Shown here: piece by piece, positions 5,977 through 37,595 of the stretch
Layout: every line of letters begins with the position of its first letter
Position numbering within the stretch: position 1 is the first letter of the stretch
Origin: a phage
Direction: 5' to 3' (one strand)
Length of the DNA stretch: 64,000 bases
Sequence record: PQ724393.1
Notes under the pieces: generated by a model
The model's database searches: none
Told to the model about the DNA's origin: nothing
Seen by the model: only the letters and a program-made list of their open reading frames with translations
Translations under genes and position numbers: made by a program

Positions 5977-6046
5977 AATAATTTCCTCAGTTTAAAATTT
6001 ATAATCCATGGGACCATTATACTCTGGTCCCAAGAGTTTGTAAACT
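5977..6046 (-). promoter_or_regulatory. Early-type promoter with hairpin around the -10
   Basis: Coding strand GTTTACA-N17-TATAAT; -10 sits in the loop of GGGACCA/TGGTCCC inverted repeat. Confidence 0.5.
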
Positions 6047-6936: not shown

Positions 6937-7115
6937 AATTTAATTTCCTTAGCTATCGAACAAAACAAACTACGGTCACATACCATCAATGGAATATTTC
7001 TATGGTCTAGTACACGATACCATACGTCTGAATCGCTAGCAGCAATTACACGAACCGCACGCCCATTTACCAAATAATACTGGTCGGCTTTAATTTCTTT
7101 ATCTTGGATAGTCAT
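6933..7115 (-). CDS. Hypothetical protein (60 aa)
   Basis: ORF immediately downstream of promoter cassette 7116-7174. Confidence 0.45.
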   Translation of the reverse strand: MTIQDKEIKADQYYLVNGRAVRVIAASDSDVWYRVLDHRNIPLMVCDRSLFCSIAKEIKL

Positions 7116-7174
7116 AATGTTCTCCTCATGTGTTGATAGGATAGACTATAACACGTGAGGAGAGGAAGTAAACA
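7116..7174 (-). promoter_or_regulatory. Early promoter / stem-loop cassette (diverged copy)
   Basis: Coding strand GTTTAC...CTCCTCACGTG...core...CACATGAGGAG(SD)-ATG; stem arms complementary. Confidence 0.45.
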
Positions 7175-8102: not shown

Positions 8103-8576
8103 TCATTTAAGCGATTTCCTCAGTTGTTTTTTAAATGAATCGACCATTTGTTTCTTTGTGTCAGATTCATTATAAGTCATTCCATGTGAAAGCATTTCAG
8201 CAATCATTTCTTCCTTACCTAATCTACTGAACTCTTTGGTTTTATCAGTTACAAAAGTAGGGTGAATAGGATTCTTGGAGCAATCATTCTCGAGGTACGC
8301 AACTAGATTTTTAAGACACTCGAGGTAGTCGTTGCCACGACCTTTAAGACCAGAGCGTACAAATTGGTGTCTGCTGCGTCCTTCCCAGGCGTTACAAAGA
8401 TTACAGAGCAACCCACGAACTCGTCCGGCTTGTAGCCCTTCTAAATCATGAGAGTGGTCTAAGTGGTTACTTTGAACATCCGTATTTAGATGTTGTTTAC
8501 ATACTAAACACAAGCCCTGTTGGTCTTTGTACATCTGTTCTTTTTGTTCTTTATAAAGCTTGCCAGTCAACAACAT
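8103..8576 (-). CDS. 49: Endonuclease VII (Holliday junction resolvase) gp49
   Basis: 157 aa MLLTGKLYKEQ..., Cys motifs CLVC and CNLCN, ...EFSRLGKEEMIAEML...KKQLRKSLK; near-colinear with T4 endo VII. Confidence 0.9.
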   Translation of the reverse strand: MLLTGKLYKEQKEQMYKDQQGLCLVCKQHLNTDVQSNHLDHSHDLEGLQAGRVRGLLCNLCNAWEGRSRHQFVRSGLKGRGNDYLECLKNLVAYLENDCSKNPIHPTFVTDKTKEFSRLGKEEMIAEMLSHGMTYNESDTKKQMVDSFKKQLRKSLK

Positions 8577-8613
8577 AATAAACCCTTACCATTATTAGAT
8601 AAGGGTATTTATT
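8577..8613 (-). promoter_or_regulatory. Late-promoter-like box plus hairpin upstream of gene 49
   Basis: Coding strand AATAAATA then CCCTTA-N11-TAAGGG hairpin containing the SD region; same layout as known for T4 gene 49. Confidence 0.4.
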
Positions 8614-8845
8614 ATTTTTCGAATGTACTATAAAACGAGCGATGTAATCGTTTAAATTGACGCATCATCTTTTTGGTAGGTCGAGTGGACAATCCTACAC
8701 ATGTAGCCATAAACTGGTCAACAGGACTTCCTTTGATAAGAAGTTTCCAGACCTTTGCGCCATTTAATTTTTCAGTATAAATCAGTTCAGTTTTCATAGT
8801 AAAACCCAAACTCCATATCGATGAAATCATTGTTTGAAGGTTCAT
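8612..8845 (-). CDS. Hypothetical protein (77 aa)
   Basis: ORF; weak SD, start uncertain. Confidence 0.35.
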   Translation of the reverse strand: MNLQTMISSIWSLGFTMKTELIYTEKLNGAKVWKLLIKGSPVDQFMATCVGLSTRPTKKMMRQFKRLHRSFYSTFEK

Positions 8846-13141: not shown

Positions 13142-13666
13142 TTATGCGAGAACCGTCTTTAAACGCTCTTCAAATTTCTGAAGCAGAGCTTGGCGTTCAG
13201 CTCGTTGTGATTTGTACTGCTCGATACGACCTGAAGTGAGGGCGTACTGTTCGTTTACTGATTCCCGCATGAATTCAGGAATCTCTTTACAAGCTTTGAT
13301 TTCGTCAAACTTATCAATAACAGCTTGTTGTTCAGCAATCAGATTATCGAAATAAGCGATATCAGATTTAACGTTTGCCAGGTCGGATTCAGTAGGCATT
13401 AAACGTTTGTTACGTTCAGCTTGATAAGCTTGATTGGTTTCACGACTCCAGTGAAGAGTACGTTTTTTGTTAGTGTTTTTATAGAGCTCTACAATACCAA
13501 CTGAATCGATGACTGCAATCCAGTTCCAACGGCTTTTGTAAATCTCTCCTCCAGATACGGTAATCTCATTACCACAAGCAACATCGTTAAAGAACTTGCT
13601 TTGTTTTTCAGATTTGAAATTACCGTTGTTGAAATTAATCAGTGAAAAAATATCTTTAGCGTTCAT
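13142..13666 (-). CDS. Hypothetical protein (174 aa)
   Basis: ORF directly downstream of promoter cassette 13667-13722. Confidence 0.55.
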   Translation of the reverse strand: MNAKDIFSLINFNNGNFKSEKQSKFFNDVACGNEITVSGGEIYKSRWNWIAVIDSVGIVELYKNTNKKRTLHWSRETNQAYQAERNKRLMPTESDLANVKSDIAYFDNLIAEQQAVIDKFDEIKACKEIPEFMRESVNEQYALTSGRIEQYKSQRAERQALLQKFEERLKTVLA

Positions 13667-13722
13667 GATAACCTCCAGTAGTTGATAGGTCTATAGTATC
13701 ATTTCTACTGGAGATGTAAACA
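13667..13722 (-). promoter_or_regulatory. Early promoter / stem-loop cassette
   Basis: GTTTACA-N17-TACTAT; stem CTCCAGTAG/CTACTGGAG with compensatory change relative to copy at 23430; SD GGAG in 3' arm. Confidence 0.55.
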
Positions 13723-15056: not shown

Positions 15057-15124
15057 TATATTCTCCGTTTCACTCAGTAGATTTGATAGGTCCATAATAA
15101 CATGCTCTACGAGGTTGTAAACAC
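15057..15124 (-). promoter_or_regulatory. Early promoter / stem-loop cassette
   Basis: GTTTACA at 15116-15122 on coding strand, conserved core, SD, ATG 15056. Confidence 0.5.
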
Positions 15125-19099: not shown

Positions 19100-19157
19100 A
19101 CCGTTCTCCTCATTAGTTGATAGGTCTATAGTATCACGTTCCTAGAGGATGTAAATA
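19100..19157 (-). promoter_or_regulatory. Early promoter / stem-loop cassette
   Basis: ATTTACA box at 19150-19156, conserved core ttgataggtctatagtatca, SD. Confidence 0.5.
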
Positions 19158-22969: not shown

Positions 22970-23429
22970 TTAAAGATAGATTACTTTCGTGCTGGTTTTA
23001 CCTTCTAAACGTTTAGAGTTAACAAATGCCATACGACATTTTAATGAATATCCTTTATCAGGATGTTTACGATCTACGGTCATACCCAACCATAAGGTTT
23101 TATCAGTAATCTCGAGACGCAGCGGACGATACACTTTACCTGGGACAATTTCAGATTCTATGTCAGGAAGAGGCTCCTGGATTAAAAATTCATGGATTTC
23201 TTTAACATGGTTATGGAGTTGCTTGAATAAAGCAAAAACGTATTTTTCGTCAATTTCACGTTGGATAGCACGGTCCAACAAGTGATTAGAGTACTTAATA
23301 AAGAAAGCTGGGACCCCGCTCTTGATGGCGGCTTTTTTGATGGACGCGTTAAGTTCACGAAATTCGGTTTCGAACTGACGACGTAATTTGTTGCGGCGGA
23401 TGAATACTTCTGAATTAATTTCTGACATT
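22970..23429 (-). CDS. regB: Endoribonuclease RegB
   Basis: 153 aa from ATG 23427-23429 (MSEINSEVFIRRNKLRR...HLLDRAIQREIDEKYVF...); strongly resembles T4 RegB; ORF-track N-terminal extension rejected. Confidence 0.85.
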
Positions 23430-23486
23430 TTGTAATCTCCTGTAGTTGATAGGTCTATAGTATCATGTCTACAGGAGATGTAAACT
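23430..23486 (-). promoter_or_regulatory. Early promoter / stem-loop cassette
   Basis: GTTTACA-N17-TACTAT; perfect stem CTCCTGTAG/CTACAGGAG with SD in 3' arm; identical to copy at 25766-25822. Confidence 0.6.
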
Positions 23487-25348: not shown

Positions 25349-25765
25349 TTAAGCGTAAATAGCCTTGCCATAGTGTTTGTACCAGGTAGGACGTTGTGCA
25401 ATTTTTTCATCCAAACGGGTTTGTGAAATAGCGATAGAAGCTTCGTGAGGAGCATAATCACCACGGAATTCCTGAGGAATATCACTAATGTCCTGGACCG
25501 TAGTATCTTTGATATTAAAGCCACGTTTTAAACATTCGGCTATAAGCTCGATTTGACGCTTACGTAAAAATTCAAGCTTATCGTAAAAGAATGTAACATG
25601 GCCTGCGCCAAGGATAAAAGTAGGACTGATTTTGAAATCACGGACACGTTTACCATTAGCAACATGCTTACGAACTGCACCGAAAACACGTGGTAATTCA
25701 CGATATTCAGCCATTAAGTGTTGGTCAGCCAATTCAGATACTAAGGTAAGGTTGATACGAGTCAT
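25349..25765 (-). CDS. denV: Endonuclease V (pyrimidine dimer DNA glycosylase) DenV
   Basis: 138 aa [41 protein letters not shown]...; essentially matches T4 endonuclease V as I recall it. Confidence 0.9.
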
Positions 25766-25822
25766 TTTTAATCTCCTGTAGTTGATAGGTCTATAGTATC
25801 ATGTCTACAGGAGATGTAAACA
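25766..25822 (-). promoter_or_regulatory. Early promoter / stem-loop cassette
   Basis: Identical to 23430-23486 copy over ~55 nt; immediately upstream of denV ATG. Confidence 0.6.
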
Positions 25823-26529: not shown

Positions 26530-27018
26530 TTATCTATAAGCGGCCCAAGTACCTGTTTTAAATGTTGAAATCACGCGCTTAGCACGGTTAGGGGTTTGCT
26601 TGTACCAACGAGATTGAGCCAGGTTAACTGCCGCATCGTTCCAACGTTTCTGTTGGAGCATACGTAAAGAGTTAGTGAACCCTGCTACACCTGCTTCACC
26701 CATTTGGAAGACCATGTTAATTAAAGCACAACGACGAACTTCATCGAGCACATCATAAACAGGTTTCAATTTAGGATTACGCAGAATAGCTCTACGAGCA
26801 TTATCAACCGACCGGTTAAAGAGTTGTTCTGCTTCAGCCATAGTAATACGACCATTACAAACTCGACCCATAAGCTTATCAAGTTCAGCGCGGGCAACAT
26901 CTTTAGATGGGTTCTTGGTAACTAACTGGCCAATACCAATAGTCCAATAACCTTCAGTGTCTTTATAAAGATTTAAATCAAGACCTTCGTCTTGACGTAA
27001 CATATCAAAAATATCCAT
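26530..27018 (-). CDS. e: Lysozyme (endolysin) e
   Basis: 162 aa [31 protein letters not shown]...; T4 lysozyme catalytic region (E, D, T) conserved. Confidence 0.9.
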
Positions 27019-27048
27019 AATACCTCCTGAGTATAGGAGGTATTTATA
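27019..27048 (-). promoter_or_regulatory. Late promoter TATAAATA plus SD-sequestering hairpin for gene e
   Basis: Coding strand TATAAATA-CCTCCT-ATACTC-AGGAGG-TATT-ATG; first arm between promoter and start, SD is the second arm. Confidence 0.65.
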
Positions 27049-29230: not shown

Positions 29231-29297
29231 TTTATTCTCCATTTCACTCTGTTGTTTTGATAGGTCTATAGTATCACACCTATAGACCTTGTACACT
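29231..29297 (-). promoter_or_regulatory. Early promoter / stem-loop cassette (variant -35 GTGTACA)
   Basis: Conserved core ttgataggtctatagtatca; stem GGTCTATAG/CTATAGACC. Confidence 0.45.
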
Positions 29298-34118: not shown

Positions 34119-34192
34119 AGTATTTCCTTCAGTTGGTTAACGTTTTGTAATCCATGAGGACATTATACCCTGTCCTCTGAGGGATGTAAACA
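34119..34192 (-). promoter_or_regulatory. Early promoter with hairpin flanking -10
   Basis: Coding strand GTTTACA-N17/18-TATAAT; GAGGAC/GTCCTC inverted repeat brackets the -10. Confidence 0.55.
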
Positions 34193-34592: not shown

Positions 34593-34648
34593 TATGATCT
34601 CCTCAAATTATGGGCTCATAATATCTTAATCATGGGCCCATGTAAACG
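34593..34648 (-). promoter_or_regulatory. Early promoter-like element with palindrome
   Basis: GTTTACA-N17-TATTAT; palindrome ATGGGCCCAT and partner TGAGCCCA flank the -10; SD GAGGAG. Confidence 0.45.
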
Positions 34649-36062: not shown

Positions 36063-36137
36063 TGGTATCCCGCCCTGGGATCGAACCAGGACCGCAAACT
36101 TAGAAGGATCGTATGCTATCCATTACACCAGCGGGAC
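36063..36137 (-). tRNA. tRNA-Arg (anticodon UCU)
   Basis: Minus-strand GTCCCGC...CCTTCTAAG...GGTTCGATCCCAGG-GCGGGAT-A-CCA; anticodon loop CUUCUAA, T-loop, encoded CCA. Confidence 0.75.
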
Positions 36138-36142
36138 ATAGT

Positions 36143-36219
36143 TGGTGACCCGGACCAGATTTGAACTGGTAACCTTTCCCTTATGAGGGGACTGCTGCTA
36201 ACCATTGAGCTACAGGGCC
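36143..36219 (-). tRNA. tRNA with CAU anticodon (Ile2-type or Met)
   Basis: GGCCCTG...anticodon loop CUCAUAA...AGTTCAAATCTGGT-CCGGGTC-A-CCA; T4 encodes a tRNA-Ile at the corresponding position. Confidence 0.7.
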
Positions 36220-37528: not shown

Positions 37529-37595
37529 TTTATTCTCCAATCACTCATTTGTTTTGATAGGGCTATAGTATCACCACTAAAGCCCGTTGTAAACA
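37529..37595 (-). promoter_or_regulatory. Early promoter / stem-loop cassette
   Basis: GTTTACA at 37588-37594; core ttgatagggctatagtatca; 5'UTR shared with the copy at 29231. Confidence 0.5.

Follow-up and report, generated by a model that had tools for sequence, protein, structure and literature searches.

The minus strand of a phage genome (sequence record PQ724393.1) carries, at positions 13664-13721, an early-type promoter whose -35/-10 spacer can pair with the Shine-Dalgarno (SD) region just downstream, and this arrangement raises the question of what a hairpin built around a promoter may do for the gene that it serves. The window, which is the whole stretch of 64,000 nucleotides that was analysed, is from a Dhakavirus-type T4-like phage, with 97% identity to Escherichia phage fDHCT2 and 95% identity to CLB_P2 (Dhakavirus, Straboviridae) in this region. 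The early genes around the hairpins lie on the minus strand, and the coordinates and sequences of all cassettes are given for that strand (Table 1). Our analysis indicates that T4-type early-promoter cassettes, forming a subtype that resembles the published PeSL elements, probably limit translation of their genes to the cassette's own early transcript; the transcription start, the translation block and the purpose in this reading are predictions from the DNA. The SD-burying hairpins at early promoters appear well supported computationally, and it is from them that we infer a function.

As the earlier note had claimed, the spacer of cassette 13720 is the reverse complement of the SD region, and the pairing was recovered independently by a repeat scan as a perfect inverted repeat of 9 bp (13673-13681 / 13705-13713). 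Over its 58 nt the element has a folding energy of -18.3 kcal/mol (z -3.6) and a loop of 23 nt, and the same hairpin is both the MFE and the centroid structure when the cassette is folded in a context of 111 nt. For the RNA that begins at the predicted start, the folding energy is -2.2 kcal/mol (z +0.3).

Table 1. Coordinates of the hairpin cassettes and related features in the window
Element	Feature	Position	Strand	Remarks
Cassette 13720	-35 hexamer GTTTAC	13721-13716	-	early-type promoter
Cassette 13720	5′ arm ATCTCCAGTAG	13715-13705	-	anti-SD CTCC; wholly inside the -35/-10 spacer
Cassette 13720	AAATGA		-	between 5′ arm and -10
Cassette 13720	-10 hexamer TACTAT	13698-13693	-	TGA before it (extended -10); in hairpin loop
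Cassette 13720	AGACCTATCAA		-	between -10 and 3′ arm
Cassette 13720	predicted +1	~13686	-	7 nt past -10 (sigma-70 spacing); in loop, 5 nt ahead of 3′ arm
Cassette 13720	3′ arm CTACTGGAGGT	13681-13671	-	holds SD GGAGG (13672-13676)
Cassette 13720	TATC, then ATG	ATG 13666-13664	-	
Cassette 13720	174-aa ORF (MNAKDIFSL...)	13142..13666	-	served by the cassette
regB cassette	whole cassette	23426..23485	-	
regB cassette	-35	23480-23485	-	
regB cassette	5′ arm	23469-23479	-	
regB cassette	-10	23457-23462	-	
regB cassette	3′ arm/SD	23435-23445	-	
regB cassette	ATG	23428-23426	-	
regB cassette	regB homologue, 152 aa	22970..23428	-	fits T4 regB position and annotation
denV cassette	whole cassette	25763..25821	-	
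denV cassette	-35	25816-25821	-	
denV cassette	5′ arm	25805-25815	-	
denV cassette	-10	25793-25798	-	
denV cassette	3′ arm/SD	25771-25781	-	SD GGAGA
denV cassette	ATG	25765-25763	-	
7172 cassette	whole cassette	7113..7173	-	60-aa ORF
7172 cassette	-35	7168-7173	-	
7172 cassette	5′ arm TCTCCTCACGTG	7152-7163	-	extended 7150-7163
7172 cassette	-10 TATAGT	7145-7150	-	
7172 cassette	3′ arm CACATGAGGAGA	7121-7132	-	extended 7121-7134; one C.A mismatch between the arms
7172 cassette	ATG	7115-7113	-	
-10-only hairpin	GAGGACA/TGTCCTC	34162-34191	-	
-10-only hairpin	TGGGACC/GGTCCCA	6016-6045	-	
-10-only hairpin	ATGGGC/GCCCAT	34618-34647	-	
-10-only hairpin	GGGCT/AGCCC	37565-37594	-	
-10-only hairpin	AGGTCTATAG/CTATAGACCT	29262-29296	-	
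Gene e (lysozyme)	whole element	27016..27048	-	
Gene e (lysozyme)	late promoter TATAAATA	27041-27048	-	
Gene e (lysozyme)	hairpin AATACCTCCT/AGGAGGTATT	27019-27044	-	-14.1 kcal/mol
Gene e (lysozyme)	ATG	27018-27016	-	
Gene 49	whole element	8574..8615	-	
Gene 49	hairpin over ribosome site and ATG	8575-8615	-	-15.5 kcal/mol; late-promoter-like AATAAATA in 5′ arm
Gene 49	ATG	8576-8574	-	

The strict pattern GTTTAC-N16-18-TANNAT occurs 14 times in the window, each time on the minus strand, against 0.95 occurrences expected, and the use of relaxed patterns resulted in 17 curated early-type promoters, each followed by an SD and an ORF. Strong SD burial was found in four of these 17 cassettes, namely 13720, regB (23484), denV (25820) and 7172, and the genes served are regB, denV and small early ORFs. 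Weak pairing of the spacer with the SD was observed in four others (19155, 11156, 25359 and 34977), and the SD is left unburied in nine, which are eight of the 16 cassettes folded first together with 29296, added later. Cassettes 13720, 23484 and 25820 are near-identical paralogues, so that the design is present but its description as occurring in many cassette copies was generous. In T4, the SD is buried at about 8 of 32 early-promoter-proximal genes (motB.2, denV, alt.-3, alc, regB, e.8, 30.8 and mrh.2), and an SD that is at least 90% paired was found in 38% of the promoter-proximal genes compared to 11% of the others. With about a quarter of the early promoters involved in either phage, the further claim that the hairpin is generalised across the early region goes too far.

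Around the predicted start, most early cassettes share the block (A)GACCTATCAA(C), as at 13682-13692, 23446-23456, 25782-25792 and 19117-19127, and the TATCAA motif within it recurs in T4 early promoters (ACAACTATCAAC). This suggests a conserved initial transcribed sequence.

The regB and denV cassettes contain perfect inverted repeats of 11 bp (23435-23445 / 23469-23479 and 25771-25781 / 25805-25815) and fold at -18.9 kcal/mol (z -5.3) and -19.3 kcal/mol (z -6.0), respectively, and cassette 7172 folds at -21.1 kcal/mol (z -6.1). In this last case, which had been listed at 7116, an SD-burying hairpin is present, but its arms are slightly unlike those originally written and contain the mismatch. 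The proposed difference between the two kinds of transcript was reproduced by folding: in the four strong cassettes the predicted probability of an unpaired SD rises from 0.00-0.01 in read-through RNA to 0.36-0.67 in RNA from the cassette's own promoter, so the SD is predicted to be buried in the one and free in the other. A predicted stable helix that takes up the SD in read-through RNA is a property shared with the e/soc/49/I-TevI class. Read-through RNA is to be expected because the upstream genes end 1-24 nt ahead of the -35 hexamer, and at most 5 nt ahead of it in three of the four window cassettes. In several cassettes 8-13 nt separate the upstream stop codon from the 5′ arm, and terminating ribosomes might open the stem partly, which would result in translational coupling rather than a block. 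SD burial showed no association with the absence of an upstream intrinsic terminator (Fisher P = 1).

In the mechanism that we propose, RNA reading through from an upstream promoter would hold both arms and would fold into a hairpin of 11-15 bp and -18 to -22 kcal/mol in which the SD is buried and the -10 box and the start site sit in the loop. RNA from the cassette's own promoter would begin in the loop, would not include the 5′ arm, and would have an open SD. The regB and denV genes and the two small ORFs (in T4, also alc, motB.2 and alt.-3) would then be translated only from their own immediate-early transcripts, and would stay untranslated on the read-through RNA that persists past early-promoter shut-off. 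A need for tight control of regB has been stated, exerted by closing its promoter at 2-3 min and through cleavage of its SD by RegB itself (PMC3014915), and translation that is limited to the gene's own transcript fits that need. Since untranslated RNA is a Rho substrate (PMC2988021), the untranslated read-through RNA may also be open to Rho-dependent polarity, and the cassette may in this way also insulate transcription units.

Inverted repeats of 9 bp are not in themselves unusual, as the window contains 19 perfect ones with loops of 3-40 nt, compared to 11.1 +/- 3.4 in shuffled sequences; what is non-random is where the arms fall, one in the promoter spacer (5′) and the other on the SD (3′). 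In a pooled set of 32 T4 promoters and 16 window promoters (48 in all), the energies of the cognate spacer x SD duplexes were bimodal, with nine at -17 to -22 kcal/mol and the remaining promoters giving energies like those of non-cognate pairs. Seven of the nine strong duplexes rank first against about 47 non-cognate swaps, while the window denV and regB duplexes rank second, behind only the near-identical T4 denV spacer. The mean cognate duplex energy was better than that of all 5000 permutations (P < 1/5000). This test on duplex energy was decisive. A swap test using base-pair probabilities was marginal (P = 0.049) because generic CTCC, CCTC or TTCC motifs, able to pair with whichever SD they meet, are common to many spacers.

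The 20-nt loop core TGATACTATAGACCTATCAA was found at 57 loci in IMG/VR, all of them in Dhakavirus-like complete genomes and smaller metagenome contigs, and one genome may hold as many as about a dozen copies; outside that set, the exact core occurs in T4 denV. At least nine contiguous in-register pairs were observed in six of the 45 distinct arm pairs that flank the core, against 0.58 expected by permutation. Three haplotypes are fully complementary, namely CTCCTGTAG/CTACAGGAG (denV and regB), CTCCAGTAG/CTACTGGAG (the 13720 gene) and CTCCATTAG/CTAATGGAG (the MKNLLKA gene). Covariation was counted over 15 distinct cassettes of the fixed-length Dhakavirus/T4 family that were picked by their 3′ arm only. 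In these, 97.9% of the cells are paired, compared to 27-49% in slid registers; two pairs are changed on both sides, from U-A to A-U in six sequences and from G-C to U-A in three; and the covariation score was reached by none of 500 shuffles. Together with the regB stems and the sense-strand bias described below, the three haplotypes and the two compensatory positions uphold the claim that the stem differs between copies with its complementarity kept, as expected under selection for RNA structure.

Ahead of its orthologue of the gene at 13142-13666, IMGVR_UViG_641509422 (170,523 bp) has a chimeric cassette in which the 5′ arm CTCCATTAG is combined with the 3′ arm CTACTGGAG and one mismatch results. 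It looks like the product of a crossover between two cassettes inside the shared loop core. The presence of this mismatched cassette in a viable phage counts against the mechanism that we propose.

The design extends beyond this genus. The T4 denV cassette is that of the window from the -35 hexamer through the SD apart from two loop bases, and the stem of T4 regB is another one, TTTTCCTCTTGACTG/CAGTTAAGAGGAGAA, which contains one G.U pair. Pairing of the spacer with the SD was found in the regB orthologues of five of six lineages, with unrelated stem sequences such as TTTCTCCTCTTTATG/CATAAAGAGGAGAAA, or TCTCC/GGAGA outside an inner AGGGCTAT/ATAGCCCT helix, and the sixth lineage has a hairpin around the -10 only. 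RNAalifold returned no consensus structure for a MAFFT alignment of ten regB cassettes from the six lineages, because the stems sit in different registers relative to the promoter; across genera the regB stems were compared lineage by lineage, not by column covariation. In the orthologue of cassette 7172, three bases of the 5′ arm are changed, resulting in two G.U pairs and the repair of the mismatch.

The published elements that the cassettes resemble, a connection not drawn in the earlier note, are known from RB49/phi1, PST/T4 and nt-1/KVP40 (Arbiol 2010, PMC2839356; Comeau 2014, PMC4122927). A PeSL (promoter-early stem-loop) consists of an early promoter and a stem-loop whose stem position is variable, and has been read as an attenuator and a recombination module (PMC2839356, PMC4122927). 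The cassettes described here are likewise repeated and intergenic: a strong early promoter, which has an AT-rich stretch upstream (the 25 nt before the promoters in the window), is combined with a stem-loop and with the SD and start codon of the gene. They are found among small ORFs where the genome is plastic, and there are signs that cassettes have recombined with one another; the near-identical 13720, 23484 and 25820 and the chimeric arms represent such repeats and recombination points. The difference is in the stem. PeSL stems are located upstream of, within or just past the promoter and before the start site, whereas the SD-burying stems occupy none of the five described positions (upstream of the -35, over it, between -35 and -10, over the -10, and after the -10 ahead of the start) because their 3′ arm is downstream of the predicted start, on the SD. 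Neither of the two PeSL papers mentions SD pairing or translation (PMC2839356, PMC4122927).

Folds with z < -2 were obtained for 22 of the 48 cassettes, and about half of these enclose the -10 only and end ahead of the SD. Such hairpins are as strong as the SD-burying ones and approximately as numerous. In the window they were found at 34190, 6044, 34646 and 37593, and also at 29296, which is outside the set of 48, and all five fit the PeSL class with the stem over the -10; in T4 they were found at ipII, ipI, dmd, motB, mobD.2, 30.7 and e.7. Cassettes 34190 and 6044 share the downstream sequence CATGGATTA, yet their stems differ and each is complementary. The -10-only hairpins, conserved with changed sequence, correspond to the published PeSL elements. 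They leave the SD free, and SD burial is therefore not the sole reason for promoter-embedded hairpins. It is one subtype of PeSL-like promoter-embedded stem-loops in T-even-type genera and no general rule, and it could be secondary to another general selective reason.

The alternative that survives best is that all of these cassettes are generic PeSLs, acting as attenuators or insulators and as recombination modules, in which occlusion is incidental because the 3′ arm reaches the SD when the cassette is compact. In favour of this, half of the structured cassettes in the window and in T4 avoid the SD. PeSLs are by definition variable in stem position, and one SLS reduced lacZ expression as much as rrnB T1 (PMC2839356). 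Recombination through cassettes would account for the near-identical copies and for the chimera, but it needs homology rather than intramolecular complementarity with compensatory changes. The regB stems vary by lineage and yet keep to the SD, which arm placement blind to the SD would not do, and the 13 RB49 PeSL-type cassettes that were examined include none with SD pairing, which indicates a distinct subtype. PeSL stems are read as terminators or attenuators, whereas the stems described here have no U-tract, have a 23-nt loop, and co-vary with the flanks of the SD. We consider the generic explanation unlikely on these grounds, although attenuation by Rho that is driven by occlusion could reconcile SD burial with the attenuator idea.

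An intrinsic terminator was rejected for these hairpins, given the missing U-tract, the loop of 23 nt compared to 3-8 nt, and a tail of GGTTATCATG or ATTAAAAATG; they are absent from a terminator scan that does find true terminators at 19195-19170 and 15164-15147. Canonical intrinsic terminators, with a UUCG loop and a T-run, are located directly upstream of promoters 19155 and 15121 (19195-19128 and 15164-15094, minus strand). At 15121 the spacer still pairs with TCTACTGAG, and the functional SD (GGAG) is 7 nt downstream, as if displaced by an insertion. In RB49 (30000-75000), the 5′ arm of PeSL stems often has GGGAG(TA) and the 3′ arm (TA)CTCCC, which places an SD-like motif in the upstream arm, the reverse of the T-even arrangement.

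Shielding from RNases is an improbable alternative. Here the hairpin would hide the GGAG of the SD from RegB (or from RNase E/G) in polycistronic read-through RNA, so that long transcripts would be left whole and the promoter-proximal RNAs would stay cleavable. Cleavage by RegB occurs at GGAG in the SDs of early genes, that of regB among them, and secondary structure prevents it (PMC3014915, PMC1702504); SD burial is best conserved at regB itself. However, several SD-burying cassettes do not have a good RegB site (GAGGAC in T4 alc and GAGGAA in alt.-3), and T4 denV is RegB-resistant by its sequence, independently of structure (PMC1702504). Such shielding would add to the exclusion of ribosomes and not replace it.

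The inverted repeats may instead be maintained at the level of DNA, as a cruciform or hairpin at the -10 that tunes the promoter, or as a target for a protein or for recombination, with templated mutation keeping the complementarity. The repeats do flank the -10 in nearly all of the structured cassettes, templated mutation at quasi-palindromes is classic T4 genetics, and the Dhakavirus stems are perfectly Watson-Crick and so uninformative on the strand. In 16 of the 22 structured cassettes the fold of the sense strand is more stable than that of the antisense strand, G.U pairs number 38 on the sense and 21 on the antisense strand, and the sense strand has an excess stability of -1.33 kcal/mol over the 48 promoters after the energies of shuffled sequences are subtracted (P = 0.007). 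The changes in the 7172 orthologue are G.U-compatible in the mRNA sense only, while the C.A mismatch of 7172 itself goes the opposite way and favours the antisense strand. Stems that vary between cassettes argue against a sequence-specific binding protein. These results favour selection that acts on the mRNA rather than on the DNA, and we regard the DNA-level explanation as very unlikely.

Chance followed by duplication, in which a single accidental inverted repeat spread to three sites, would suit the three near-identical copies among the four of the window and the frequency of 9-bp inverted repeats (about 11 per 64 kb), but it is effectively refuted by the independent stems at 7172, in T4 (regB, alc, motB.2 and 30.8) and in other genera, among them the regB lineage stems, by the duplex permutation, and by the compensatory changes of the covariation count.

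The reading that we prefer, in which the hairpin limits translation to the cassette's own transcript, has its closest known parallel in late genes. The hairpins of genes e and 49 that were said to be visible in the window are both there, each with a late-promoter-like box, and the early-cassette hairpins are more stable than either. In T4 the e hairpin reduces lysozyme synthesis approximately 100-fold (PMC3014915), and the known cases of sequestered ribosome binding sites (e, soc, 49, 25/26 and the homing endonucleases) are all late genes according to the 2010 reviews (PMC2988022, PMC3014915). The early cassettes are similar to the late type (e, soc, 49, I-TevI, segB and Aeh1 mobE) in their logic, since the SD or AUG is predicted to be paired in the long RNA and the transcript of an internal promoter would skip the 5′ arm and be translatable. 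They differ in that the promoter is of the sigma-70 early type (GTTTAC-N17-TACTAT with TGn) and not TATAAATA, the genes are early, and the hairpin has its 5′ arm between the -35 and -10 hexamers and a loop of about 23 nt. The timing would also be reversed, with translation confined to the earliest transcripts instead of being delayed until late. No description of an early-promoter version was found in the literature consulted, and a mention for regB, denV or alc in older primary papers is possible.

In RNA phages such as MS2, SD-occluding hairpins give translational coupling in polycistronic mRNAs. The likeness is that a downstream SD is held in a long-range helix and that its availability is set by upstream events; the helix in MS2 is opened by ribosomes translating upstream, whereas release in the early cassettes is predicted to come from a different transcript start.

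If translation is limited in this way, the consequences would extend beyond single genes. It is possible, at somewhat less than even odds in our estimate, that translation specific to the transcript of origin is a general design rule of T-even-type early regions, with a subset of immediate-early genes (regB, alc, denV, motB.2 and others) translatable from their own promoters only, as the hairpin made from the promoter's spacer would conceal the ribosome site in all longer RNAs. The mechanism would help to explain the abrupt fall of early-protein production after early-promoter shut-off, a step that reviews call incompletely understood, and would provide a mutable handle on why that production stops. 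For regB it would be a third layer of control besides promoter shut-off and self-cleavage. The promoter hairpin that sequesters a ribosome binding site, so far a feature of late genes, would be seen to work at sigma-70-type early promoters with the opposite timing, and part of the PeSL family would be translational insulators, not terminators. With Rho polarity, each cassette could be a shuffleable insulator of both translation and transcription. The mechanism would also matter to phage engineering and annotation, since these genes would fall silent unexpectedly if a cassette were moved or deleted or if they were driven from an upstream promoter. The location of the -10 in the loop makes the promoter and the stem separately mutable, and the hypothesis is thus easy to test.

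A search of the whole window with Rfam at the gathering score matched two tRNAs alone and none of the cassettes; the two tRNA genes are adjacent, at 36066-36219 on the minus strand. In T4, a third type of hairpin was observed upstream of modB (record position ~13130), formed between the -10 region ATGATATGATAGCTTC and the SD and start codon GGAGGCTATCATG; the predicted probability that the SD is unpaired is 0.00 in the read-through RNA compared to 0.75 in the promoter's own RNA.
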